Shown in pieces: positions 10,032 to 23,116 of a stretch of DNA of 64,000 nucleotides. Position 1 is the stretch's first letter, and each line of letters starts with the position of its first letter. The DNA is taken from the IMG/VR virus record IMGVR_UViG_3300032312_001822, positions 26,596-90,595 of that record; one strand, given 5' to 3'. The position numbers were made by a program, and so were the translations under genes. The notes beneath the pieces are model-generated. The model searched no databases. It was not told where the DNA came from and saw only the letters and a program-made list of their open reading frames with translations. The stretch comes from a virus. Taxonomy: Duplodnaviria > Caudoviricetes.

Positions 10032-10081
10032 GCTCCCCAAATTTGATTTCGTATATTAAGGTATAATTAAAATTAAATGTT

Positions 10082-10444
10082 ATGACTAAAGCACCAAATA
10101 GAGGAAGACCAACTGAAAATGATACTCCAATACTTCAGTACACTCAGAATTTTAAAGAATATACAGGTGAAACATTTACTTGGAATTGGGACAAAACTCG
10201 ATTCCCAAATGGACCATTAAATGTTGAAATTAAAGATCCACAATGGAGTACTTTTGATAGACTAGAAAATAAATTAGCATCATTGTTATCTCAATATGAA
10301 GTAAAAGGTAATGAACGTAAAAAACGAATTACTAAAACTGATAAATTAGAAATAGAAGCATTAGAAAGTGAAATAAATGAAATATGGTATGGTTTCTATC
10401 CTGAAGACAGGCCTAAAGTAAGAAAAAACGCTAAACTTAAATAG
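10082..10444 (+). CDS. Hypothetical early protein
   Basis: Own early promoter at 10028, GTTATG start. Confidence 0.75.
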   Translation: MTKAPNRGRPTENDTPILQYTQNFKEYTGETFTWNWDKTRFPNGPLNVEIKDPQWSTFDRLENKLASLLSQYEVKGNERKKRITKTDKLEIEALESEINEIWYGFYPEDRPKVRKNAKLK

Positions 10445-10759
10445 ATGAAGGCTAAACAACTTAAATTTAGAGACTTAGATGAACTAATGGAGTTCAATGA
10501 ACAACAAGCTCGTGACATACACCTTCATACTTTTAAATTCTTAAGATATGAATGGAATAAGAATAAAAAGTTTAGTGATATAGATCTTTTCAATATAGAC
10601 TTTGAAGGTGATATAGAATTTGATAATATAGTCTTAACTATTTACTCCACAGAGTGGATTAAGGCTTTAGAATTAGGATTAGAATATTTTGTAGAACAAG
10701 AAGAATACGAGACATGCTCTCAAATTAGAAATTTATTAATTAAAATTAAAAAGAAATGA
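10445..10759 (+). CDS. Hypothetical protein with C-terminal UVR-like motif
   Basis: ALELGLEYFVEQEEYETCSQIRNLL. Confidence 0.6.
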   Translation: MKAKQLKFRDLDELMEFNEQQARDIHLHTFKFLRYEWNKNKKFSDIDLFNIDFEGDIEFDNIVLTIYSTEWIKALELGLEYFVEQEEYETCSQIRNLLIKIKKK

Positions 10760-10962
10760 GTTATTTTCAAGCAACAGTAGAAATCCTTGACATGAGTGAA
10801 AAAGGTAAACAAACAAAAAACAGAGAGTTATATTTAGTAGATGCTGTTTCGGTAACAGATGCAGAAGTTAAAGTAACAAAAATGTTTGAAGATGAAGGTT
10901 CACAAGTAGATTTTCAAGTAAAAAGTGTTAGAGAAACAAAGATTTTACAAGTAATTGAATAA
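10756..10962 (+). CDS. DUF4494-like protein (Bacteroidetes family)
   Basis: G-K-x-x-K...E-x-YLVDAVSVTDAE-x-K pattern matches DUF4494 as recalled. Confidence 0.7.
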   Translation: MSYFQATVEILDMSEKGKQTKNRELYLVDAVSVTDAEVKVTKMFEDEGSQVDFQVKSVRETKILQVIE

Positions 10963-11010
10963 AAGCTTTTTGAAGCACACCCCATCCTTAGATACATATA
11001 TACGCCACAA

Positions 11011-11220
11011 ATGAATTACCTTTATAAACATAATGATAAATTATATTTGGTGCTTAGAAACATGCCCGAACATAATTTTAAAAATAAGGATGGGTCTTTT
11101 AATATGGAGGTTTTAAGGGCATGGCGCGATCATTTAGGTGGCGACCATGTCTTAAAACAACATGACAGATTTTTAATAGTAGAAACAATACAAGAAATAG
11201 AATATGAAACAAGTAATTAG
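11011..11220 (+). CDS. Hypothetical protein
   Basis: 69-aa ORF overlapping the thioredoxin start. Confidence 0.6.
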   Translation: MNYLYKHNDKLYLVLRNMPEHNFKNKDGSFNMEVLRAWRDHLGGDHVLKQHDRFLIVETIQEIEYETSN

Positions 11221-11455
11221 ATTTACAGCCGCTTGGTGCGGCCCATGTAAAGTATATGCCCCAACATTTGAAAGAGTGGCTAATGAGGTATCAGGAGTAC
11301 AATTTGAAACAGTAGATGTTGATTCAACAGATCCAAGAATAACTGAAATGGGTATTAGAGGAGTACCAACAACTGTGGTTTTAGAAAACGGTCAGGTTGT
11401 TAAAAAACAATCTGGGAATATGGGAGCAGAACAGTTGAAACAACTTATTGGATAA
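11204..11455 (+). CDS. Thioredoxin
   Basis: FTAAWCGPCK active site, GIRGVPT. Confidence 0.92.
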   Translation: MKQVIRFTAAWCGPCKVYAPTFERVANEVSGVQFETVDVDSTDPRITEMGIRGVPTTVVLENGQVVKKQSGNMGAEQLKQLIG

Positions 11456-11702
11456 AATTCATATGAATAAGATACAAGAAATTTTTACAGCATGGGCTAT
11501 AGCATTTGACCCAACACAAGAACAATCTGAATTAGCAAGTGAAAGAATTCAAATTTGTAATGAATGTGAATTTAAAAATACCATTCCTATCATACATTGT
11601 GGTGAGTGTGGGTGTGCTTTAAAAGCTAAAATATTTTCACCTGTTAAAGGAGCTTGTCCTAAGAGTAAATGGGATGAAGTTGATAATAAATTCTTACCGT
11701 AG
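11448..11702 (+). CDS. Cys-rich zinc-binding hypothetical protein
   Basis: RIQICNEC...CGECGC..KAK...CPKSKW. Confidence 0.7.
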   Translation: MDKIHMNKIQEIFTAWAIAFDPTQEQSELASERIQICNECEFKNTIPIIHCGECGCALKAKIFSPVKGACPKSKWDEVDNKFLP

Positions 11703-11762
11703 GAAATGTTTGGAAAACTAGAAAACACTTCGTATATTAAGGTATAAATAAAAATAAAAGTT

Positions 11763-12878
11763 ATGATATTACCAATTTTATATAAGCGTTCAAATAGTAA
11801 AGAACATATCAACCAATGGCAAATTGAAGTTGAAGGAAATAAATTTAGAACTACAACTGGGTTTGTAGGTATGAAGATGTTTACAGGTGATTGGACTGAA
11901 TGTACTCCCAAAAATATAGGTAAAAAGAATTCAACAACAGCTGAAGAACAAGCCTTATTTGAAGCTAATGCACTTCATACTAAACGTAAAGATTTAGGTT
12001 ATTGGGAAGATATAAATGACTGTGATAAGAAAGTATTCTTTCAACCTATGTTAGCTCAAGACTATGATAAGAGAAAAGACAAAATTAAATTTCCTATACT
12101 TTCTCAACCTAAATTAGATGGTATCAGATGTATTATTAAATCAGATGGTATGTGGACAAGAAATGGTAAAGAGATTATATCCGCACCTCACATATATGAA
12201 TATTTAAAACATATCTTTGATAATCAACCCGACTTAGTATTAGACGGTGAATTATATACTTCAGATAGAGATGTTGATTTTAATACTATTATTTCATGTG
12301 TTAGAAAAACAAAACCCACACAAGCTGATTTAGAAATGTCAGCTAAATATATTGAGTTTTGGGCTTATGATTTATATGATGGTGAAGATTTAACCTATGA
12401 AGATAGAAGAAATTTATTAAAAGAGTTAGAAAGTAGATATAATGTTTATTATCCTTTATACAGAGTAGTTACAACTTATCAATTGCCTGATGAAAAACAT
12501 GTTATGGAACAACTTCAACATTACATTGAACAAGGTTTTGAAGGCCAAATATTAAGAGATCCAAATACACCTTATGAAAATAAAAGATCAAATGGTTTAT
12601 TAAAACATAAAACATTTTTTGATGAGGAGTTTGATATCATTGGTTACGCTGAGGGTGTAGGTAAATTTTCAGGTAAATTAGCAACTTTAAAAGTAGATGT
12701 TAATGGGATTCAAGTTGATTGTACTATAAATGGTACAATGAGTTATTTAGAAGAATTATTTGAAATTAAAGATAGTTTAATAGGTAAAAAAGCAACTGTA
12801 AAATATTTTGAGAAAACAACTGATAATTCATTACGTTTTCCAAAAGTGATTCAAATTGATAGAAACAGTTATGAATAG
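11763..12878 (+). CDS. ATP-dependent DNA ligase
   Basis: QPMLA, QPKLDGIRC (motif I), LDGELY, FEGQILR, KRSNGLLKHK, LRFP. Confidence 0.95.
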   Translation: MILPILYKRSNSKEHINQWQIEVEGNKFRTTTGFVGMKMFTGDWTECTPKNIGKKNSTTAEEQALFEANALHTKRKDLGYWEDINDCDKKVFFQPMLAQDYDKRKDKIKFPILSQPKLDGIRCIIKSDGMWTRNGKEIISAPHIYEYLKHIFDNQPDLVLDGELYTSDRDVDFNTIISCVRKTKPTQADLEMSAKYIEFWAYDLYDGEDLTYEDRRNLLKELESRYNVYYPLYRVVTTYQLPDEKHVMEQLQHYIEQGFEGQILRDPNTPYENKRSNGLLKHKTFFDEEFDIIGYAEGVGKFSGKLATLKVDVNGIQVDCTINGTMSYLEELFEIKDSLIGKKATVKYFEKTTDNSLRFPKVIQIDRNSYE

Positions 12879-12881
12879 AAG

Positions 12882-13499
12882 ATGAAATTAGCAATAGGAT
12901 TATTTGGAATACATTATATAAATGAATTGAATCATTGGATGGGTTGGAGAAATGGAGTAGATTATAGAAAAACTTACACTAACCAATCTAATTTAATATA
13001 CTCTAAATTCCAAACTAAATATTATTCAGCTACTTATTATTCTGATATTGAAAATGAATTATTATCTAATTATAATTTTTCTAATATCTTATTTAAAGAA
13101 GTAGATAATTCATCTTCAAATCCCTTAATAAAAAGGAATACTATTTTTAAAAACACAGTTAAATTGATATTGGATAATGATAAAGATTCTGATTTAATTC
13201 TTCTAACAAGATATGATTTAGAGTTTAAAGGAGGATTTGATTTATTTAATATTGATTATAATAAAATAAATTTCCTTTGTGGAAATAGAAGTGGTAATGA
13301 TTCTGATTTAGTAGATGATAATTTTTATATAATCCCAAAATCTCTTTTAAAATATTTTTATGAAACCATAAATGAAGCACCTGAAAATGTTTCATCTCAT
13401 TTATATCATAAGTTATTTGAAGATTATAATTTTATGATAAATGAATGGTACTACAGTCATGAAAATCCTTTTTATGAAATAACAAGAATTAAATTATGA
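12882..13499 (+). CDS. Putative glycosyltransferase-like protein, distant paralog of 3503-4216
   Basis: MKLAIGLFG..., LILLTRYDL, DDNFYI. Confidence 0.45.
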   Translation: MKLAIGLFGIHYINELNHWMGWRNGVDYRKTYTNQSNLIYSKFQTKYYSATYYSDIENELLSNYNFSNILFKEVDNSSSNPLIKRNTIFKNTVKLILDNDKDSDLILLTRYDLEFKGGFDLFNIDYNKINFLCGNRSGNDSDLVDDNFYIIPKSLLKYFYETINEAPENVSSHLYHKLFEDYNFMINEWYYSHENPFYEITRIKL

Positions 13500-13702
13500 G
13501 TAGAAAACCTTATAGAAGATTTTATTGTGAAGATACATCTCCTACATTAAAATCAATAAGAACCGTCAAGAATCATGGTAAAATTAGGACAATAAATGAT
13601 TTAACTTACGAGCAAATAGGGGATGATATGCTGTATTGTTTTAAAACCTCTCGCGTTGTTAAACTTGGCTCTCTAGAATTGGATTCGTATATTAAGACAT
13701 AA
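13496..13702 (+). CDS. Hypothetical protein (the C-terminus may only run through the next promoter)
   Basis: ORF track; its last codons overlap the promoter at 13664. Confidence 0.45.
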   Translation: MSRKPYRRFYCEDTSPTLKSIRTVKNHGKIRTINDLTYEQIGDDMLYCFKTSRVVKLGSLELDSYIKT

Positions 13703-13718
13703 TTAAAATATAAAAATT

Positions 13719-13913
13719 ATGAGTAAAGAATTAAGTGAATTAAGTATAGATGAAATTAATAATAAATTAATTGAAAACTATAAAACTCAAGTTGAGATTT
13801 TAAAATCAATGGTGGCTGATAGAGATAAATTAATTTCTATGTATGAAAAACAATTACTAATTCAGGATAAACATATTGATGAAATTAATAAAATTATAAA
13901 ATCAAATTTATAA
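13719..13913 (+). CDS. Coiled-coil hypothetical protein
   Basis: Own early promoter; heptad-like sequence. Confidence 0.65.
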   Translation: MSKELSELSIDEINNKLIENYKTQVEILKSMVADRDKLISMYEKQLLIQDKHIDEINKIIKSNL

Positions 13914-13917
13914 TAAG

Positions 13918-14196
13918 ATGGAGAAAACAGGCAATCTTGAAAAACTAACTTATGACTTTAATACAGCCTCTAATTTAGAAGTTTGGATGCCTAATTTAGA
14001 TGGGTGGTATAGAGTTACAAGTAGAGAATTCAGAAGTTTTAATGGTAAGAGGAGAATTAATGGAGAAGAATATAAAGGAGTTGTATTCCATTATGGAACT
14101 AATAAAAGAGCTAACAAGTCATTAGTAGAAGCTAATAAAATAGCAAGTCATAATTACAAAAGTGTTAGGAGACCCGGAGATCAATTAGTATATTAA
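13918..14196 (+). CDS. Hypothetical protein
   Basis: 92-aa ORF. Confidence 0.65.
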   Translation: MEKTGNLEKLTYDFNTASNLEVWMPNLDGWYRVTSREFRSFNGKRRINGEEYKGVVFHYGTNKRANKSLVEANKIASHNYKSVRRPGDQLVY

Positions 14197-14218
14197 ATTA
14201 AATAAAAAATAAATATAA

Positions 14219-14416
14219 ATGGAGAAATTAGGAGCAATATTAACAGCAGTAGCATTATTAGCATTAGGTGCAATTGTATTAGCATGGCCTGTGCAATTAT
14301 TATGGAACTATTCACTTGTGGGGGCAGTAGATGGAATAAATCCAATTACATTTTGGCAAGCATTAGGAATTAATTTCTTATTCGGAATATTATTTAAAAA
14401 TTCAAGTTCAAAATAA
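14219..14416 (+). CDS. Small membrane protein
   Basis: Two hydrophobic segments; ITFWQALGINFLFGILFK. Confidence 0.7.
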   Translation: MEKLGAILTAVALLALGAIVLAWPVQLLWNYSLVGAVDGINPITFWQALGINFLFGILFKNSSSK

Positions 14417-14592
14417 TGAGTTACTATCAAGTTATATTAAAATCAGGAAAAGCACACCCGTCTCTTTATAAAACTATACCTAATGCCATTAAAAATGTAG
14501 GAGTAGAGAATATAAAGGAGATTAAAGAAATTAGATCGGAGTTAGTAGATGCTAAATACGAAGAACCAACAGGAACATCAAATATAGAATAA
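14416..14592 (+). CDS. Small hypothetical protein (58 aa, not in ORF track)
   Basis: Hand-translated MSYYQVILKSGKAHPSLYKTIPNAIKNVG...; TAATG coupling to the previous gene. Confidence 0.55.
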   Translation: MSYYQVILKSGKAHPSLYKTIPNAIKNVGVENIKEIKEIRSELVDAKYEEPTGTSNIE

Positions 14593-14593
14593 T

Positions 14594-14734
14594 ATGAGCA
14601 AAAACAGCGCCAAAACAAACTACGAACAATTAATTCAGTGGTTACCAACATTAGGACAACCTAAAGTAAAAAAAGAACAACAGTCAACTAAATTTAGTAA
14701 AGCTGATCATTACAAGAGTAAAGGGGTTAAGTAA
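14594..14734 (+). CDS. Small basic hypothetical protein (46 aa, not in ORF track)
   Basis: Hand-translated MSKNSAKTNYEQLIQWLPTLGQPKVKKEQQSTKFSKADHYKSKGVK. Confidence 0.55.
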   Translation: MSKNSAKTNYEQLIQWLPTLGQPKVKKEQQSTKFSKADHYKSKGVK

Positions 14735-14784
14735 GTTTTGCTTTTCAAATATCTTTTCGTATATTTAGGTATAAATGAAATGAA

Positions 14785-14961
14785 ATGAAAACTGTACAAT
14801 TTACCTTACAAGAAAGATGGGCTGCTTCAAAGCATATGGTTCAAAAATCTAAAAAAACTTACACTAGAAAAGATAAACATAAAAACAAGGACCATAAAGG
14901 TCCTTCTTTTATTGTAATGTTTGGCTCTCCGGGGTATGCTTCGTATATTAAATCATATTAA
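14785..14961 (+). CDS. ArfA/BrfA-like alternative ribosome-rescue peptide (58 aa as read to the stop; not in ORF track)
   Basis: MKTVQFTLQERWAASKHMVQKSKKTYTRKDKHKNKDHKGPSF...; KSKKxYxRKxKHK motif; own promoter at 14737; internal terminator. Confidence 0.6.
   Translation: MKTVQFTLQERWAASKHMVQKSKKTYTRKDKHKNKDHKGPSFIVMFGSPGYASYIKSY
14887..14912 (+). terminator. Intrinsic terminator inside the ArfA-like ORF
   Basis: AAGGACC-ataaa-GGTCCTT followed by CTTTTAT. Confidence 0.7.
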
Positions 14962-14980
14962 TAATTAAAAATAAAATGTT

Positions 14981-15718
14981 ATGACAAATCAAGAAACACA
15001 ATTAGAATTAGATTTCGGAATGTTAACAGTTGCTCAACAGGAGCGTGTTGACTCATTTATTCAAAACCAAAAAAATATTATTCAAAATAATATTAAAAAT
15101 AGTAATGCTATTGAAATATTATTAAATGAAGGTGGTTTTATTAAAGGTGTTGATTATGAAAACACTATTAAAACTAAAATTGTAACAGAAGTAAAAGAAT
15201 TTTATTGTGATGGTAATTTTAAAACTGATATTACTTATGAAACAGTAGATGGTAATATTTCAATTTTATATAAAAAATATGATTCTAGAGAAAATAAAAT
15301 TGTAACTCAAAAATCATATGTTGGTAAAGAATTAAATAAACTTCAATGTAGTTCTATCACCCCACAATATAGAGCTTACAAACCGAAATCATTATATGAA
15401 AAACTATTAGAAAATAATAGTAAAGCTCAAAATGAGTATGATAGTGCTAATCGTGAAAAAGCTGTTATTAATTATACTATTGAAAAATACAAAAATTTAT
15501 TTCCAAAAGCTGAAATTACAGTAGGTAAAGATTACTATAAAAATTATAGAAGTAATTATATTGAATTTCCAATTGTAATGGTTAAATTTGAAAGTGGTTC
15601 ATACATTAGCTTCAGAATGGGTTTTAAAATTGATGAAGAAGTTGTTTATAAAAAACATGATGCAGTTGCTTCTCAATTAAGCCCAATTGAAATATTAAAT
15701 ATTTTTAACCAACAATAA
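14981..15718 (+). CDS. Hypothetical early protein
   Basis: 245 aa; promoter at 14920; GTTATG start. Confidence 0.8.
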   Translation: MTNQETQLELDFGMLTVAQQERVDSFIQNQKNIIQNNIKNSNAIEILLNEGGFIKGVDYENTIKTKIVTEVKEFYCDGNFKTDITYETVDGNISILYKKYDSRENKIVTQKSYVGKELNKLQCSSITPQYRAYKPKSLYEKLLENNSKAQNEYDSANREKAVINYTIEKYKNLFPKAEITVGKDYYKNYRSNYIEFPIVMVKFESGSYISFRMGFKIDEEVVYKKHDAVASQLSPIEILNIFNQQ

Positions 15719-15779
15719 AGTTTGGCTCCCCTAAATTAAATTCGTATATTAAAGTATAATAATAAAAAATATAAATGTT

Positions 15780-15935
15780 ATGACACAAGTAGAAGAAGTA
15801 GTTAAAATTATTGAAAAAAATAAAAATTTAAAAACCAATGAACTAATTTGGTTACCAGAAGTAAAAAAATATAATTTACCAACTTCTACCATTTTAGTAT
15901 TAATAGAGGAAGTAAGAAAAAGTGACTTAAAGTAA
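15780..15935 (+). CDS. Small early protein (51 aa, not in track)
   Basis: MTQVEEVVKIIEKNK...; promoter at 15721; GTTATG start. Confidence 0.65.
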   Translation: MTQVEEVVKIIEKNKNLKTNELIWLPEVKKYNLPTSTILVLIEEVRKSDLK

Positions 15936-15996
15936 AGTTTGGCTCCCCTAAATTGATTTCGTATATTAAAGTATAATAATAAAAAATATAAATGTT

Positions 15997-16797
15997 ATGA
16001 CACAGTTAAAAAAATTATCAAGAGAGGAGTTAAAATCATTAGCACCTCAAGTATTCAATCATCAAGTTAGTTCTAAGTTAACTGACAAGTATGTTCACAT
16101 TCCAACTGATACTATAGTTGAAGATATGGAAAAGTTAGGTTGGTTCCCATATCAAGTGAAAACAGTTAAGGCTAGAAAATCATCAGGCGCAATGGGTAAA
16201 CACTTAATTCAGTTTTTTAATCCTGAAATTGTTATTAATAATGAAGCAGGTGAAGCTGATTTATTCCCAAATTTATTATTAATTAATTCACATGACGGTT
16301 CTACTTCAGTAAGATTTGAAATGGGAGTATTCAGATTAGTATGTGAAAATGGTTTAGTAATTAAATCAAAAGATTTTGGAGGTTTCAAAATGAGACATAT
16401 GGGTTATAATTTTGAAGATTTAAGAACCCATATTAGTTCTTTAGTTAAAACATTACCTGATGTAGTTGATAATTTGAATAAATTCTCTCAAGTAATTATG
16501 ACACCTGAGCAACAAAATGAATTTGCAAATAAGGCAATTGAAGCTAGGTTTAATGAAGAAAAAACATTACCTCAAAGTGAAATTGATTATTTATTAACAC
16601 CTGAACGTAAAGAAGATAAAGGTGACAATTTATGGGTTGTACTAAATCGTGTACAAGAAAAATTAACTCAAGGGGGTTTTGGTTATTTAAACGCCAAGGG
16701 TAAATTAAGAAAAACAAGAGCTGTTAAAAACTTTACAATGGATACTGAAATGAATATGAAGTTATGGGAAATTGCTGAAGAGTATTTAGTTAACTAA
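15997..16797 (+). CDS. DUF932/DUF945-family protein
   Basis: APQVF..S.KY.HIPT, LLLINSHDGS, GVFRLVCENGL, LWVVLNRVQE. Confidence 0.85.
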   Translation: MTQLKKLSREELKSLAPQVFNHQVSSKLTDKYVHIPTDTIVEDMEKLGWFPYQVKTVKARKSSGAMGKHLIQFFNPEIVINNEAGEADLFPNLLLINSHDGSTSVRFEMGVFRLVCENGLVIKSKDFGGFKMRHMGYNFEDLRTHISSLVKTLPDVVDNLNKFSQVIMTPEQQNEFANKAIEARFNEEKTLPQSEIDYLLTPERKEDKGDNLWVVLNRVQEKLTQGGFGYLNAKGKLRKTRAVKNFTMDTEMNMKLWEIAEEYLVN

Positions 16798-16858
16798 AAT
16801 TAAGGGGAGCTTGGCTCCCCTAATATAAAATCGTATATTAAGTTAAATAAGATAAAAA

Positions 16859-17017
16859 ATGGAAATAATTGTATTACAATTTTCTTTATGTGGGTTAAAT
16901 TTATTCGCGGCCAAAGCAACAAAAGATAGAGGTAGAAACCCAGCTTTTAGTTACTTTGTAGCAGGAATGACTTTTGGTTTTGGGGTTGCAAGATTAATTG
17001 AATTACTATTAAAATAA
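16859..17017 (+). CDS. Small membrane protein (52 aa, not in track)
   Basis: MEIIVLQFSLCGLNLFAAK...FSYFVAGMTFGFGVARLIELLLK; promoter at 16810. Confidence 0.6.
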   Translation: MEIIVLQFSLCGLNLFAAKATKDRGRNPAFSYFVAGMTFGFGVARLIELLLK

Positions 17018-17022
17018 ATAAG

Positions 17023-17211
17023 ATGACATTAACCCCAATTCAAAAATTAAGAGAAGATATTAGAAGCTTTGATTCAGGTTTGTACTTAGGAGTATTATCT
17101 TTATTAGTTGAAGCAGAAGGTCAAGAGAAAGTATTCTTGGAAAAAGTTTATAACGAACCCAAAACAACTGAGTTTGAAGAATATTATAAACAGTTTGGAA
17201 AACCTAAATAG
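17023..17211 (+). CDS. Hypothetical early protein
   Basis: 62-aa ORF. Confidence 0.55.
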   Translation: MTLTPIQKLREDIRSFDSGLYLGVLSLLVEAEGQEKVFLEKVYNEPKTTEFEEYYKQFGKPK

Positions 17212-17251
17212 GATTCGTATATTAAAGTATAATAATTAAAAATAGAGAGTT

Positions 17252-17440
17252 ATGATATTACAAGTAATTAATACTAAAAAGGAAAAGTTCAATCAAATTA
17301 GAACAACTAAAGAAAATTTATTTGCTGATTTAAAATTTCAAGGTTGGCATGTACAAGATTGCAAAATAAGTGAATTAAAAGAAGAATTAGTTCACACATT
17401 GTACAGAAGTGCAGATGGTAAAAACACTAGTACAAGATAA
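17252..17440 (+). CDS. Hypothetical early protein
   Basis: Promoter at 17194; GTTATG start. Confidence 0.7.
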   Translation: MILQVINTKKEKFNQIRTTKENLFADLKFQGWHVQDCKISELKEELVHTLYRSADGKNTSTR

Positions 17441-17448
17441 AAACAAAG

Positions 17449-17550
17449 AGTCAGGAGTCCATTGGTTGGAAGCACCTCCCCAAGGTTAAGTAACATTAAG
17501 GCTGACTTTTAATGGCAAAGCTGGAGTAGGTTCAAATCCTACCCTGACTT
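17449..17550 (+). ncRNA. tRNA-like RNA (degenerate or atypical tRNA)
   Basis: Perfect 7-bp acceptor stem AGTCAGG/CCTGACT; T-arm GTAGG-TTCAAAT-CCTAC; D-arm TCC-ATTGGTT-GGA; weak anticodon arm; 37-nt extra arm; no encoded CCA. Confidence 0.65.
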
Positions 17551-17551
17551 C

Positions 17552-17589
17552 TAATAAATGCCTCATAACCATTTATTATTTTTAATTAT
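17552..17589 (+). ncRNA. Anti-start-codon hairpin, copy 1
   Basis: TAATAAATG-cctcataac-CATTTATTA followed by TTTTTAATTAT; reverse complement of the early leader. Confidence 0.6.
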
Positions 17590-17597
17590 CGAAAAAG

Positions 17598-17623
17598 AGC
17601 CTAACAGAAATGTTAGGCTTTTT
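17598..17623 (+). terminator. Intrinsic terminator overlapping the next promoter
   Basis: AGCCTAACA-gaaa-TGTTAGGCT followed by TTTT. Confidence 0.8.
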
Positions 17624-17668
17624 GGGTTTAACTTCGTATATTAGGGCATAATTAAAAATTAATATGTT

Positions 17669-17944
17669 ATGAAAAACGAGAAAGTAGGTTACAGTAGAGA
17701 AGCAATGATTAAGTTTCTAAAAATTGAAGGTGTTTATGTTATTGGAACAACTGAAGAATTTTCAGGTCAAGAAGGTGGAATTTGGGTTGGGGGTGAAGAA
17801 ATGGATGATTTATTTGAATATTATAATAATAGTTCTAAATTCACATTTGGAGTAGAGAAAAAATTAAACGAAGCTGTTAATAAAAGAGGGTGGTGGTTTA
17901 GTTGGAATGATCCGGGTACAATGATGGTGTGGCCAATTAATTAA
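17669..17944 (+). CDS. Hypothetical early protein
   Basis: Promoter at 17613; GTTATG start. Confidence 0.75.
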   Translation: MKNEKVGYSREAMIKFLKIEGVYVIGTTEEFSGQEGGIWVGGEEMDDLFEYYNNSSKFTFGVEKKLNEAVNKRGWWFSWNDPGTMMVWPIN

Positions 17945-18001
17945 AATTTGGCCCCCCTAAATTGAATTCGTATATTAAAGTATAATTAAAAATTAAATGT
18001 T

Positions 18002-18214
18002 ATGAAAATTATTAAAGTTACAAGTTTATCTGATAAAAAATCAGTTTATCTAAATGTTGAAGCCATAGGACACTTTTACACAGTGCCTGAAAAAAGAGAT
18101 TATGGTAGAGTTGAAAAAGTAGAACATACTAGAATTGGAGTTACAACCCACAATAATGGAGGGTTTGAAATAACTGAAACCCCTGAAATGTTAATTAAAC
18201 TAATTAATAATTAA
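18002..18214 (+). CDS. Hypothetical early protein
   Basis: Promoter at 17947; GTTATG start. Confidence 0.75.
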   Translation: MKIIKVTSLSDKKSVYLNVEAIGHFYTVPEKRDYGRVEKVEHTRIGVTTHNNGGFEITETPEMLIKLINN

Positions 18215-18270
18215 TTGGCTTCTAAATATTAAATTCGTATATTATAGTATAATTAAAAATATAAAAAGTT

Positions 18271-19026
18271 ATGAAAAACATTGAAACATTAAATCAGGAA
18301 ATTGTAAAGTTAGAAGAACAAAAAACAAATTTCTTAAATTTAGAACAAGATTTAAAAGATGCAAGATCTAATATCTATGTTAGAGAACAACAAGCATTGA
18401 GTGATTCTTTATTACCATTTTTTGAAAATTTTAAATATGGTGTTAATATTGAAGTTAAAAGAGACTCTATTTATTTTAAAACTGATCACCCTGATTACAC
18501 TTATCAAAAAGAATTATTTAGTATTTATTTAAGAGAAAGATACTCAAGTGAGGGTAAAAAATATGATGGGGCTGATTTATCTTATTACACAACTTCTACT
18601 AAAGGAGAAAATACTTGGGAGTTAAAAAGATTACAATTATTAGGAAGAGTAGCTGAAATTTTAGAAGACCAACAAGGACTTATTGTTGATACAGCTAATG
18701 ATGTTTCAAATAAATTCAAAGAAGAATTTAATGAAGTTTATGGTAAAATGGGTGTTGTTGGAAATTCTATTAGAGACTTAAATAACCAAATTAGAGAAAT
18801 CCAAAAACAAGTAAAAAGAATTGAATTATTTGGAGAAGGAATCCAATTTGAAAAATCAAGATGCATTACTTTGAAACATAATTATGAACCAAGAGTTGTA
18901 TCTTTAAAATTAATTGAAGTTTCTAAATCAGGTAAAAAAGCAACTGCTGTATTTGAGTGGGAGAAAGGAAGAGAATCAAGAGAAGAAGGTGTAAATGTTG
19001 AAAAAATCATTTACCAAGTTATATAA
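18271..19026 (+). CDS. Hypothetical early protein with coiled-coil segments
   Basis: 251 aa; promoter at 18214. Confidence 0.8.
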   Translation: MKNIETLNQEIVKLEEQKTNFLNLEQDLKDARSNIYVREQQALSDSLLPFFENFKYGVNIEVKRDSIYFKTDHPDYTYQKELFSIYLRERYSSEGKKYDGADLSYYTTSTKGENTWELKRLQLLGRVAEILEDQQGLIVDTANDVSNKFKEEFNEVYGKMGVVGNSIRDLNNQIREIQKQVKRIELFGEGIQFEKSRCITLKHNYEPRVVSLKLIEVSKSGKKATAVFEWEKGRESREEGVNVEKIIYQVI

Positions 19027-19057
19027 GTGCCTCATAACCACTTATTATTTTAATTAT
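19023..19057 (+). ncRNA. Anti-start-codon hairpin, copy 2
   Basis: ATAAGTG-cctcataac-CACTTAT followed by TATTTTAATTAT; the A-T pair of copy 1 is G-C here. Confidence 0.6.
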
Positions 19058-19065
19058 ATTTTGTT

Positions 19066-19088
19066 AAAGCTCCTTATTAAGGGGCTTT
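19066..19088 (+). terminator. Terminator-like hairpin overlapping the next promoter
   Basis: AAAGCTCCTT-att-AAGGGGCTTT. Confidence 0.6.
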
Positions 19089-19141
19089 GGCTTTCTAAAT
19101 TATAATTCGTATATTTAAGTATAATTAAAAAATAAAATGTT

Positions 19142-19378
19142 ATGATGAGTTTTAAATTGCAAGATGAAGCAAATGGGTCTTTTAAAATATTTGATTTAAG
19201 ACAAGCTATAGGTAGAGAATTTAGTGATAATCACTCTCCAACTTTAAGGAGTAAATTATTAGAAGTAAGTGATTGTGGGAATGTTTGTACTGTAATTAGT
19301 GTAGAAGCCTATAATAAACAAGGGGGTAAAGTAAGTAAACAACCTTCTTATTTAACTTGGAATGCCTTATTTTATTAA
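19142..19378 (+). CDS. Hypothetical early protein
   Basis: Promoter at 19086; GTTATG start. Confidence 0.7.
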   Translation: MMSFKLQDEANGSFKIFDLRQAIGREFSDNHSPTLRSKLLEVSDCGNVCTVISVEAYNKQGGKVSKQPSYLTWNALFY

Positions 19379-19435
19379 AATTTGGCTTTTATAGGTCAGC
19401 TTCGTATATTAAAGTATAATTAAAAATTAAATGTT

Positions 19436-19561
19436 ATGAAAAAAATAGTATTGTTAGGAGTTATTTATTGGGAAGTAGAAATTGGAGGGGTAACTCATAT
19501 GTCATTCAACCCTCAAGAATTAGTTGTAAAAATGGCCTCAATGGGTTTAAGTTTAAATTAA
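19436..19561 (+). CDS. Small early protein (41 aa, not in track)
   Basis: MKKIVLLGVIYWEVEIGG...; promoter at 19381. Confidence 0.55.
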   Translation: MKKIVLLGVIYWEVEIGGVTHMSFNPQELVVKMASMGLSLN

Positions 19562-19573
19562 AAATATAAAGTT

Positions 19574-19792
19574 ATGAGTTTACATTCAGTTTACATATGT
19601 GAAGATTTTGAAATTGGTAATGGTATTTTAACTATTTGGGATGCCAAAGAAGTAGCTAAGGTAAAAGATATAGATGGTTTTAATAGAATTAATGAAATTC
19701 TAATTTCTGAAACGGGAGTATTACCTAATGGAATTATATGTCCTAATTTATTTCATAATTCTGGATTTTTTGATATTATACTTTTTGAATAA
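19574..19792 (+). CDS. Hypothetical early protein
   Basis: AAAGTTATG start. Confidence 0.65.
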   Translation: MSLHSVYICEDFEIGNGILTIWDAKEVAKVKDIDGFNRINEILISETGVLPNGIICPNLFHNSGFFDIILFE

Positions 19793-19849
19793 TATTTGGC
19801 TTTTATAAGTCAGCTTCGTATATTAGGGTATAATTAAAAATATAAAGTT

Positions 19850-20152
19850 ATGACAAAGAAAGAAAGATTAAGATTAAATACAGTTCATGTAATTGAAATG
19901 GTACAAAAGAATTTTGAAGTAAGTACTGATTTTTGTGATGATGAAGGTCATGGTTATTTTACTTTTGGGGTAATGAAAGATGGAGTAGAATACTTATTTG
20001 ATTTAAGTAGAAGAGATTTTAGTGTTATTATCCATAAAATAAGAGGTGAAAAAGATTATGAAATTGGAGCTGATTTGGAGGCTGAATTAGAAAGATTTAT
20101 TTTCTTAGAATTAGAAATTTCAAACGCCCGTATTGATAATATGATTAAATAA
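19850..20152 (+). CDS. Hypothetical early protein
   Basis: Promoter at 19795. Confidence 0.75.
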   Translation: MTKKERLRLNTVHVIEMVQKNFEVSTDFCDDEGHGYFTFGVMKDGVEYLFDLSRRDFSVIIHKIRGEKDYEIGADLEAELERFIFLELEISNARIDNMIK

Positions 20153-20217
20153 TATAATTTGGCTTTATTAAATTAAATTCGTATATTATAGTATAATAAT
20201 TAAAAATATAAAATGTT

Positions 20218-20583
20218 ATGGCAACAAGATCAAGAATCGGAATCGAAAATGAAAATGGTACAATTAGTTCAATTTATTGTCATGGGGATGGTTACCCAGA
20301 TGGTGTAGGGGCAACTTTAGAAGAACATTACTCCAATAGACAAAAATTAAGAATGTTAATCAATTTAGGTGACATTAGTATTTTAGGAGAACATGTAGCA
20401 ACAATGGATGAACACTCTTTTGATAATAGAAAAGAAGGTGTTACAGTAGCTTACCATAGAGATAGAGGTGAAGAAAAACGAGAAGCAAGAGAAGATAGCT
20501 CATTAGATTCATTTTTAAAATCCGGATATGAACAATATGGTTATGTTTATACTAAGGATGAAAAATGGGTAATGTTTGAATAA
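20218..20583 (+). CDS. Conserved phage early protein (MATRSRIG...YCHxDGYP family)
   Basis: Family motif recognised; promoter at 20158. Confidence 0.8.
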   Translation: MATRSRIGIENENGTISSIYCHGDGYPDGVGATLEEHYSNRQKLRMLINLGDISILGEHVATMDEHSFDNRKEGVTVAYHRDRGEEKREAREDSSLDSFLKSGYEQYGYVYTKDEKWVMFE

Positions 20584-20589
20584 TAAAAA

Positions 20590-20610
20590 GGGGCTTCGGC
20601 CCCCATATTA
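20590..20610 (+). terminator. Terminator-like hairpin
   Basis: GGGGC-ttcg-GCCCC with an AU-rich tail. Confidence 0.7.
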
Positions 20611-20665
20611 TTTGGCTCCTATATATATATTTCGTATATTATAGTATAATTAAAAATATAGAGTT

Positions 20666-20839
20666 ATGACACAAGAAGAAATGAATACCGAAAATGCTTT
20701 AGTAAATGAGAAATATGAAGTGATTAGAAAATTAGATGCTTACTTACATATTGAGTCTTTTAATAGAACTAAATTAACAAGTGAAATGTTAAAGGAGTTA
20801 AGAGGTAAAATTGACGAAATGTTATTATCCGATTTTTAA
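20666..20839 (+). CDS. Small early protein (57 aa, not in track)
   Basis: MTQEEMNTENALVNEKY...; promoter at 20611. Confidence 0.65.
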   Translation: MTQEEMNTENALVNEKYEVIRKLDAYLHIESFNRTKLTSEMLKELRGKIDEMLLSDF

Positions 20840-20898
20840 TATTTGGCTTTTAAGATTATTATTCGTATATTAAGGTATAATTAAAAAGATAAATTGTT

Positions 20899-21120
20899 AT
20901 GAAAGTAAAAGATTTAATTAAGTTTTTAAGTGAACAAGATCAAAATTTAGAAGTAGTTATTAAATATATTGATCCTTCAAATTGGAATTATGAATTACCT
21001 TTAAGAGCTCAAGATGTTTATGTGGACGAAGTATTTGAGGTGGATGAAGCTAATTTAGAAGAGGGTCAATCTATTGAATCAGGGGATGAGTGTTTGGTAA
21101 TTGAATTAAGTTTTGAATAA
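20899..21120 (+). CDS. Acidic early protein
   Basis: MKVKDLIKFLSEQDQNLEVVI; promoter at 20842. Confidence 0.75.
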   Translation: MKVKDLIKFLSEQDQNLEVVIKYIDPSNWNYELPLRAQDVYVDEVFEVDEANLEEGQSIESGDECLVIELSFE

Positions 21121-21126
21121 CATATT

Positions 21127-21231
21127 ATGAAAGAGAAATTATATATTGTTGATGGATTTGAAATATGGGCGGATAGTGAAGCCGGGGCTATTGAAAAATA
21201 TAGATTATGGTGTTTACCATGTTGGGATTAA
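21127..21231 (+). CDS. Tiny ORF (34 aa, not in track)
   Basis: MKEKLYIVDGFEIWADSEAGAIEKYRLWCLPCWD. Confidence 0.45.
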   Translation: MKEKLYIVDGFEIWADSEAGAIEKYRLWCLPCWD

Positions 21232-21291
21232 TATTTGGCTTTTAAAATTATATTTCGTATATTATAGTATAATAATTAAAAATAATATGTT

Positions 21292-21468
21292 ATGGAAAGT
21301 AGATTTGGTATTGAATTAGAGGTATTAGAAAAAGCATTACAAAATATGATCAGTGAAGGTTATATGGGTAAAGATGATACAATTGAAGATTTAGAAGATT
21401 TAGCTTATACATCTTGTGAAGGATTAGCTTGGTACGCCAAATCTAAAATATATGATTGGGCAAATTAA
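21292..21468 (+). CDS. Small acidic early protein (58 aa, not in track)
   Basis: MESRFGIELEVLEKALQ...; promoter at 21234. Confidence 0.65.
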   Translation: MESRFGIELEVLEKALQNMISEGYMGKDDTIEDLEDLAYTSCEGLAWYAKSKIYDWAN

Positions 21469-21527
21469 TATTTGGCCTTTAAAAATATTATTCGTATATT
21501 AAGGTATAATTAAAAAGATAAATTGTT

Positions 21528-21695
21528 ATGGAAAATCAAGTTACAGAATTAGAGTTAATGTTCATTAGGTTAGAAAGATTAGAATTACAATTAGTGGAAA
21601 ACGATGTAATAGAAGATGGAGACATGATAAGTGAAGCATTGGGTGAATTGAAAGAGAGATTGTATGACAAAATAAGAGAAGTGAGCAACGAATAA
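21528..21695 (+). CDS. Small acidic early protein (55 aa, not in track)
   Basis: MENQVTELELMFIRLERLE...; promoter at 21471. Confidence 0.65.
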   Translation: MENQVTELELMFIRLERLELQLVENDVIEDGDMISEALGELKERLYDKIREVSNE

Positions 21696-21705
21696 AATTC
21701 AGTAT

Positions 21706-21813
21706 ATGAAACCAATAATATTCTATCATACGGAGAAAGAGACATGGGTAAAAGTAGATGAAATACTCACCGGGGAAACGATCATTTCCTCACCCGTTTC
21801 ACCCCTCACATAA
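21706..21813 (+). CDS. Tiny ORF (35 aa)
   Basis: MKPIIFYHTEKETWVKVDEILTGE... Confidence 0.35.
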   Translation: MKPIIFYHTEKETWVKVDEILTGETIISSPVSPLT

Positions 21814-22160
21814 TGTGACAAATTGGAATTAATATACCCTAACAAGTAATGGGATATGGATATTGGGATATAGGGATAGTATAGTATGTGGAAAATAGAT
21901 TATATGGGATGTGGAGATACTAGGGCAGGGTACGTGACTTCATTGAGGTGGAAGGCCAAGCCTTACTCGAACAGAGGAGTATATACCTTACCCTAAATAA
22001 TGTTTTAAAACGCTGATTATACCCTGAAAAATAAATGTTAAAATGTTTGGCTTAGTTAAAAAGGTTTTATAAATTAAATTAAAAAAGGGTTTTAAACGCT
22101 GCCATGTTGTGAACCTAAAGTAGACGCGGCCCCACTCCCCCGGGGCCCCTACTTAAATTT
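21814..22160. other. Non-coding G-skewed/GC-rich tract
   Basis: GGGATA-like repeats at 21851, 21865, 21873 and 21906; GTTTTAAA(A)CGCTG at 22002 and 22089; GGCCCC-N8-GGGGCC hairpin at 22128-22147. Confidence 0.6.
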
Positions 22161-22219
22161 TGTTTGGCTATTGGAAAATTGCTTCGTATATTATAGCATA
22201 ATTAAAAAAATAAAACGTT

Positions 22220-22507
22220 ATGACAAAGCAAGAATTTTTATCGGGTAAGTGTTTTACAATTGGGGCTCCGACTTATAAGGGTGCTAACACCTATAGCTAT
22301 TATAAAAGTGATAGGAATGAGGGTTGTATAATGAGACAATCAAGATCATCATTAGACAATAGAATAGTATTAAATGATTATGAGTGTAACGCTCCAACAG
22401 TGGGGTCAAAATCGTTTACTGGATTTACTTACGTAATGAAAAAGAAAGTAGTGGTTAAATACAGGTTTGAGGACCTAATATTGTTTGAGGAAACTGTAGG
22501 GGAGTAA
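22220..22507 (+). CDS. Hypothetical early protein
   Basis: Promoter at 22163; GTTATG start. Confidence 0.7.
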   Translation: MTKQEFLSGKCFTIGAPTYKGANTYSYYKSDRNEGCIMRQSRSSLDNRIVLNDYECNAPTVGSKSFTGFTYVMKKKVVVKYRFEDLILFEETVGE

Positions 22508-22541
22508 ATCCCCTGCATAGTTATAGAGAAAATCTATAGCA

Positions 22542-22775
22542 ATGAACATAACTAAACAACTAAGTGGGTTAAGCACCCGTCTAAACGAATTACTTGAGGA
22601 TATGGACCGAATAATGGACTATATCGATAATGACGAATTATATAACGAGATAGACAATAATGTCAAATCTCAGCTGGAAAACGCAGTTACGCACCTAGAT
22701 ATCGCAGTTGACGACCTTAATGACGGAATGTATGAAGATACGCCCGTGGACGAAGAAGATTTAGATTGGGATTAG
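22542..22775 (+). CDS. Highly acidic small protein
   Basis: 77 aa, Asp/Glu-rich, helical; locally more C/G-ending codons. Confidence 0.6.
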   Translation: MNITKQLSGLSTRLNELLEDMDRIMDYIDNDELYNEIDNNVKSQLENAVTHLDIAVDDLNDGMYEDTPVDEEDLDWD

Positions 22776-23116
22776 AAAAGAATGATTTTGTATCCTTACA
22801 GTTCGGACCCGTTCGGTAATGGATTAAAAACGTATAGCCACGCGTCGTTGCTGTCCATCGACGGATCCGCGGGATCACAGGACAAGATTATGGTGATAAG
22901 AGATCGAAAACACTCTTTACCCAACCCCCTTGTATATACAAATATATATGAGTTTCAAATAACCCCTTTGATATAAGATTCATAAGGGTTAAAAAAAGAG
23001 ATCTTAAAAAGATTTTACCAAATAAAAAAGTATATACAAAATAAATGGGGAGTGGTTTGGCTTCCCAATTTCTGTTTCGTATATTGTTACATAATAATAA
23101 TAAAAACAAATAGGTT

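Follow-up and report, generated by a model that had tools for sequence, protein, structure and literature searches.

A small basic phage protein encoded across an in-frame terminator-like hairpin: a candidate release-factor-dependent ribosome-rescue factor

The Gene and Its Setting

The window analysed, a stretch of 64,000 nucleotides, forms part of a 90.6-kb viral contig from IMG/VR, the closest cultured relative of which is the 160-kb Flavobacterium myovirus vB_FspM_immuto. On the + strand it carries an open reading frame (14785–14961) of 58 codons plus a TAA stop codon at 14959–14961, as the preliminary description had reported, and the basic stretch quoted there corresponds to residues 15–34 of the product. 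The conserved coding core, codons 1–36 (14785–14892, + strand), specifies an extended N-terminal segment, a short helix (residues 8–15) and a basic tail, the last including an ArfA-like basic motif, KSKKTYTRKDKH (residues 21–32; 14845–14880, + strand), that contains the family-invariant Tyr26 and a Lys-His pair. An intrinsic-terminator-like element is located in frame at codons 35–44 (14887–14914, + strand), and the read-through codons that follow it, together with the TAA (14915–14961, + strand), are unconserved and probably lie outside the transcript. The contig holds a single copy of the gene, and the product has a homologue in gp147 of immuto, with 75% identity across residues 1–43.

The ORF is a true coding gene under strong purifying selection: comparison of its first 28 codons in 48 unique close relatives gave a mean pS of 0.83, a mean pN of 0.17 and a median dN/dS of 0.10, with 26 of the 28 third positions variable as against 10 of the 28 second positions. 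A reading of the locus as a small RNA was rejected because the codon-position pattern was of the coding type, the overall fold of the transcript was ordinary (z = −0.95), and the lone match returned by an Rfam scan of the transcript (SraG, E = 0.68) was far under threshold and at chance level. The N-terminal 15 residues proved to be the best-conserved part of the protein, the sequence T-x-Q-E-R-W-A-A-S being invariant within the clade. AlphaFold2, run on the family alignment, predicted residues 1–7 as extended and residues 8–15 as a helix, followed by an unstructured basic tail (mean pLDDT 77), a predicted fold that is compatible with the layout of either ArfA or BrfA without discriminating between them.

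The gene is served by one member of an extensive promoter array. On the + strand, TCGTATATT occurs 22 times in the interval 10049–23085, compared with 0.64 in shuffled sequence, and alignment of these copies defined a near-identical promoter-leader module, TTTGGCT-N15-TCGTATATT-AnnGTATAAT, followed by an A-rich leader and the start context GTTATG, which is nearly invariant among the 22; every copy sits ahead of one or two small genes. The preliminary description had credited the ORF with an early promoter of its own, and a variant copy of the module was indeed located at 14737–14765 (+ strand; TTTG at 14737–14740 and TCGTATATT at 14757–14765). Its further statement that the tail of the ORF crosses the next promoter also held, a module copy at 14920–14949 (+ strand), belonging to the next gene (ATG at 14981), being contained within the last 14 codons. 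The same type of module was found upstream of the gene in four relatives (L012, L013, L015 and L016). In immuto-type relatives (L009, 2440–2500; L019, 530–590) a conserved TTGGGG-n-ACTACTCTAATGTAGCT element replaces the TCGTATATT module upstream of the gene, and this element may constitute another promoter class.

The leader of the gene is approximately 10 nt shorter than those of the other cassettes and contains ATGAA three times (14775–14790), thereby creating two overlapping two-codon mini-ORFs (ATG AAA TGA) before the ATG at 14785. Throughout the array gene ends routinely overlap promoters. Two other small ORFs, at 13496–13702 and 17023–17211, likewise continue into the promoter that follows them, in a frame matching that of the ORF under study, and acquire promoter-derived ends in consequence, TTT GGC TCT being translated as F-G-S and TCG TAT ATT AAG as S-Y-I-K: the former ORF terminates in SYIKT and the latter in FGKPK. 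Elsewhere in the region, 11763–12878 encodes an ATP-dependent DNA ligase that shares about 40% identity with the ligases of large phages, and 15997–16797 a DUF932 protein (E = 2e-25). No tRNA genes were detected by ARAGORN across the whole window.

Family and Distribution

A word-indexed search returned 20 protein clusters, and an exhaustive profile search 128 representatives (clusters at 50% identity) of a wider phage family; two scans of IMG/VR, with 177 and 111 confirmed matches, provided 160 loci. The clade to which the window gene belongs is characterised by the core M-K-T-[VI]-Q-x-T-L-Q-E-R-W-A-A-S ... K-K-x-Y-x-R-K-D-K-H-K, and a second clade by the core T-x-Q-E-I ... A-T-R-P-N-V-Y-R-N-K-K-K-Y-T-R-K-x-K-H-K. 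Members of the second clade mostly have an ordinary stop codon 3–9 codons past the K-H pair, and the hairpin is either absent or present as a terminator after the stop. Roughly two in three of the family members sampled had ordinary stops without a hairpin, and the non-stop design described below is therefore dispensable for the function of the protein. A core tree, built on only 33 columns and correspondingly rough, placed every hairpin-bearing gene in one subclade of 48 rows, six of which lacked the hairpin; those hairpin-less members that were read (L010/L011 and L168) stop 6–8 codons beyond the K-H pair.

When 100 members of the wider family were scanned, 66 matched DUF7230 (PF23876) at E values up to 1 (best 4.2e-6), and on this basis the window gene is considered a divergent relative of DUF7230, its own protein scoring 12.2 bits (E = 0.21) and not reaching the cut-off of 27 bits. 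No mention of DUF7230 was found in the literature searched, and its function is unrecorded. It was absent from 14 control genomes, and a survey of 301 Bacteroidota genomes produced one weak match, hence the family is not one that host genomes generally encode. A scan of genome contigs for DUF7230 recovered 15 loci, mostly on MAG contigs of mixed taxonomy, which are likely to represent binned phage DNA. The family is phage-borne; among deposited phages immuto was the sole carrier, and megablast, run with the region as query, matched no deposited phage.

Six loci on Bacteroidales MAG contigs of 0.3–1.6 Mb (L030–L034 and L036) encode chromosomal proteins of approximately 61 residues that end in T-R-P-K-[IV]-Y-K-N-R-K-K-Y-T-R-K-G-K-Q-K. 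The tail motif is that of the phage family, the N-terminal half differs and the stops are ordinary; at L031 the surrounding genes, which encode DUF2461, TPR and YtfJ-like proteins, are of ordinary bacterial type. These proteins may be a host-side relative of the phage family.

The In-Frame Hairpin

The terminator scan located the hairpin AAGGACC-ATAAA-GGTCCTT at 14887–14905, exactly where the preliminary description had placed an in-frame terminator. It occupies codons 35–41 in frame, has a 7-bp stem with four GC pairs (−9.5 kcal/mol) and an ATAAA loop, and is followed by the U-tract CTTTTATTG; the TAA lies 53 nt beyond it, inside the next promoter. It was one of five sites recorded in a 6-kb region for which shuffled sequences gave 1.4 ± 1.4.

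Conservation of the terminator's position in homologues, proposed in the preliminary description as a check, was then assessed gene by gene, with stems detected in each sequence individually in place of column-wise pair counting because a MAFFT alignment of the region gave shifting stem registers. A GC-rich hairpin was retained in 44 of the 49 unique clade genes, starting at ORF nucleotides 99–109 and kept at nucleotides 99–130, with compensatory stem changes: the hairpin-bearing genes had 26 different inner-stem sequences, among them GGACC/GGTCC, GGGC/GCCC, GAGTC/GACTC, GGGGAT/ATCCCC and GAGGAGC/GCTCCTC. The same description had taken homologues with a stop codon before the hairpin as evidence against its reading, and no hairpin-bearing homologue has one. 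Each of the 44 genes with a hairpin has its first in-frame stop downstream of the stem, at a distance of at least 9 nt in 38 and 6–8 nt in six (range 6 to 205 nt), and the tails beyond the hairpin were of unrelated sequence from one relative to another.

Stop triplets were also counted by frame. Over the interval that begins at codon 33 and ends 6 nt beyond the stem, the frame of the ORF contained none and the remaining two frames 4 and 33; in the following 60 nt the three frames contained 85, 61 and 67, the frame of the ORF accounting for the 85. Once 6 nt beyond the stem, stop triplets are as common in one frame as in another, and the reading frame is considered to be protected as far as the terminator and not beyond it. 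As a control, the other terminator-like sites of the same loci were examined: 60 of 64 were outside ORFs, and the remaining four look incidental, whereas the terminators of this gene were within an open frame in 38 of 38 cases. A promoter of the kind that follows the hairpin in the window was missing after the hairpin in 38 of 47 relatives, and the hairpin travels with the gene rather than with the following promoter. With a looser hairpin search, which gave 45 cases in which the stop follows the stem, U-tracts were poor (fewer than five T in nine) in 12.

Since conservation, covariation, frame protection and the terminator control all agree, the genes of the window clade are likely to be designed to produce a message without a stop codon.

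Similarity to ArfA

ArfA (YhdL, PF03889; PDB 5U4I, 5MDV and 5H5U) is an RF2-dependent alternative ribosome-rescue factor of beta- and gammaproteobacteria, in which the RF2-binding segment comprises residues 15–31 and includes a beta-strand with F25. Residues 31–48 occupy the mRNA tunnel (PMC5378476). The ArfA motif given in the preliminary description was compared with the E. coli sequence itself, and alignment of KGKGSYMRKGKH with the window motif KSKKTYTRKDKH showed identity at 7 of 12 positions without gaps.

When the family profile constructed from 100 sequences was searched against all PDB sequences, E. coli ArfA was ranked first (E = 0.028) and six ArfA entries were present within the top seven matches; an 11-sequence profile placed ArfA at ranks 2–5 (E = 0.087). 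The profile alignment, which extends over some 22 residues, superimposed family positions 16–37 on ArfA residues 26–50, with the most conserved family columns, K24, Y26, R28 and K29, falling on K34, Y39, R41 and K42 of ArfA. Shuffling of the whole mature ArfA, of its basic half, or of only the 25 aligned residues (20,000 shuffles per scheme) generated no sequence that reached the real score with the 100-sequence profile (0 of 20,000) and one with the small profile; judged by these shuffles, the match is not an artefact of composition. Comparison by hhalign gave P = 1.5e-4 (probability 52%) against the single E. coli ArfA sequence, 8.7e-4 (23%) against an enterobacterial ArfA alignment, and 2e-3 (14%) against an alignment with three divergent ArfAs, the addition of these diverse sequences thus bringing no better profile-profile score and a lower probability. 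A language-model search, deployed solely as a lead, returned a 46-residue ArfA-domain cluster at a score of 0.89 with 199 of 256 features shared, and DUF7230 at rank 5 with a score of 0.90.

Within the tail of ArfA, the sequence Y-x-R-K-x-K-H and the flanking V-x-K-N-K-K have counterparts in the window protein; KGKGS is absent, its position being taken by K-S-K-K-T. No counterpart of the RF2-binding region of ArfA was found, since the alignments end at ArfA residue 25/26 and family residues 1–15 are dissimilar. The Pfam ArfA model, which scored E. coli ArfA at 89.7 bits as a positive control, matched neither the window protein nor the whole phage contig at E values up to 10, nor, at E values up to 1, a single one of 100 family members. 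Scans of the window protein with Pfam, NCBIfam and PHROG yielded nothing significant, the PHROG matches of the family were all of unknown function, and a bridging search in which a divergent short ArfA was used to link ArfA with the family returned only the query's own cluster.

The profile search against ArfA and BrfA that the preliminary description had called for consequently had a divided outcome: ArfA was the top PDB match, the Pfam ArfA model was silent, and BrfA did not appear. The resemblance to BrfA claimed in that description was not reproduced, no BrfA chain being present among the PDB matches of the protein or of the two family profiles at E values up to 10. The similarity to ArfA is short and of borderline significance. 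Because the defining Pfam model fails, membership of ArfA is not established, and what is proposed below is that the protein works like ArfA and not that it is a member of that family.

One of the loci examined (L201, 140–340) encodes a divergent 38-residue gammaproteobacterial ArfA with an ordinary stop right after K-H-R, and an apparent tRNA gene begins a few bases past that stop (GGGGAGATTAGTTCAGTGG ... GGTTCGATTCCC); processing of the tRNA could truncate the ArfA message.

Proposed Role and Alternatives

The truncation design of arfA and brfA, in which a hairpin, either a terminator or an RNase III site, precedes the stop codon and truncates the mRNA, is present here at the level of sequence. 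To our knowledge, arfA and brfA are the only natural genes with such a design, and both encode rescue factors. The combination of this design with a tail motif of borderline significance leads us to suggest, tentatively, that the gene could well encode an ArfA-, BrfA- or ArfT-like peptide of approximately 36–43 residues that rescues ribosomes with the aid of a release factor and is gated by trans-translation in the host.

In the sequence of events envisaged, transcription would start near 14770 under the control of the early promoter and be stopped near 14912 by the in-frame hairpin and U-tract, thereby generating a message without a stop codon, at the 3' end of which the translating ribosome would stall. 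While the host had spare tmRNA-SmpB capacity the resultant peptide would be tagged and degraded; were trans-translation to become saturated, the peptide would escape. Its basic tail, K-x-K-K-x-Y-x-R-K-x-K-H, would then enter the vacant mRNA tunnel of further non-stop ribosomes, and its N-terminal strand and helix would bring in the host release factor, with consequent hydrolysis of peptidyl-tRNA. The extended residues 1–7 and the predicted helix at residues 8–15 could play the RF2-binding role of ArfA. That transcripts end at the hairpin in vivo, that tmRNA gates expression, and that the peptide binds ribosomes and recruits a release factor are all steps that we infer, and the link to host defences made in the preliminary description is speculation. 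Because the peptide is devoid of a GGQ motif and neither an RF-1 nor a Pth domain was found on the contig, a factor from the host would be required for any release activity. Of 1956 genomes of the FCB group, 1910 carry ssrA and 1426 carry arfB, and arfA is absent from all of them (PMC11633108); given that ssrA is near-universal in the likely host phylum, a stop-less message would meet tmRNA there.

A peptide produced from the same stop-less, tmRNA-gated message might alternatively perform some other ribosome- or RNA-related function in which no release factor is recruited: possible roles include obstructing tmRNA-SmpB, or competing with it, at empty A sites, adjusting translation while the host is being taken over, and binding another RNA. 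The non-stop architecture accords equally well with such a role, the resemblance to ArfA is confined to the tunnel-binding tail, with the N-terminal half that engages RF2 in ArfA being unrelated, and a basic tail could serve to bind other nucleic acids; moreover, the basic tails of SmpB, ArfB, ArfA and BrfA share the same channel and yet have different outcomes (10.1101/465609; PMC6881298). We nevertheless regard this role as rather unlikely. A phage that blocked rescue would leave ribosomes trapped, to the detriment of its own translation, and the strong conservation of the N-terminal 15 residues points to a specific protein partner; the precedent of the two natural genes of this design also favours rescue.

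A second alternative, which we consider distinctly improbable, dispenses with the non-stop message altogether: the gene would encode an ordinary small basic early protein, translated mainly from read-through transcripts that extend to the downstream stop, with the hairpin, which would overlap the end of a compact gene by chance, acting as a leaky terminator or as a stabiliser of the 3' end. The ORFs at 13496–13702 and 17023–17211 provide a local parallel for entry into the next promoter in frame, the stop follows the stem by just 6–8 nt in six relatives, and some of the U-tracts are weak. Protein made mainly by read-through would nonetheless sit uneasily with stops that follow the stem at anything between 6 and 205 nt, with tails that are unconserved, and with a frame that is protected only as far as the terminator. 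The terminators of other genes follow their stops in 60 of 64 cases; the hairpin is, in addition, present in those 38 relatives that have no following promoter, and the hairpin-less clade members that were read stop shortly past the core.

That the ORF is a leader peptide, the translation of which through the hairpin controls termination or read-through into downstream genes as in attenuation, is most improbable: the overlap of ORF and terminator would allow a ribosome close behind the polymerase to prevent the hairpin from forming, but selection on the peptide is strongly purifying, the peptide occurs without the hairpin in most of the family, and in the window the next gene has its own promoter 15 nt past the terminator, leaving little for read-through to regulate.

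To return to ribosome rescue, we know of release-factor-dependent factors from only three narrow bacterial groups; being tiny, such factors are hard to detect by homology. No report of an ArfA-like factor in phages was found in the literature searched. It is possible, and is put forward here with some reserve, that the present micro-protein family, which is found on hundreds of viral contigs and overlaps DUF7230, is the first virus-encoded release-factor-dependent rescue factor, either related to ArfA or convergent with it, and that one clade has independently acquired, or has retained, a stop-less message in the manner of arfA and brfA, such that the factor appears only when host trans-translation is overwhelmed. 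Were this so, viruses would be shown to regulate the stalled-ribosome pool in the course of infection, the release-factor-dependent type of rescue would extend to phages of likely Bacteroidota hosts, which have tmRNA and ArfB and lack ArfA, and a small basic ORF entering a conserved terminator would provide a search rule for further factors. As the cultured relative immuto grows on Flavobacterium sp. LMO8, the hypothesis is directly testable.

Comparison with Known Rescue Factors

The phage peptide resembles ArfA in being a small protein without a GGQ motif, in having a basic C-terminal tail whose pattern, V-x-K-N-K-K ... Y-x-R-K-x-K-H-x-N-[RK], aligns with the part of ArfA that takes in the tunnel residues, and in the predicted end of its mRNA at a hairpin ahead of the stop codon. 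It differs in that the KGKGS loop of ArfA is represented in the family by K-[SN]-K-K-x, or by a three-residue deletion according to HMMER, in the unrelated nature of its N-terminal half relative to the release-factor-binding half of ArfA, in being 10–15 residues shorter, and in being phage-borne, with a likely host phylum in which ArfA is lacking.

BrfA (YqkK) of Bacillus subtilis is translated from a non-stop mRNA over some 62 of its 71 codons, with tmRNA keeping the product at a low level; its intrinsic terminator lies within the ORF, and the tmRNA gating has been proven experimentally (PMC6881298). A terminator inside the ORF is likewise predicted here, from the sequence alone, and the two proteins are alike, as far as the predicted fold goes, in a short N-terminal helix with an extended tail after it, and in the K-H pair within that basic tail; this pair is the one motif common to ArfA and BrfA, and contacts U534 of 16S rRNA (PMC6881298). 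However, no sequence similarity to BrfA was detected, and BrfA is a chromosomal product confined to the Bacillaceae.

ArfT of Francisella tularensis, with 40 residues and a normal stop codon (10.1101/465609), offers a third comparison, being of similar length (approximately 40 residues) with a basic tail and an ordinary stop without truncation control, as in the majority clade of the present family. ArfT differs in carrying the sequence KKGGSTNKK and is known only from Francisella.
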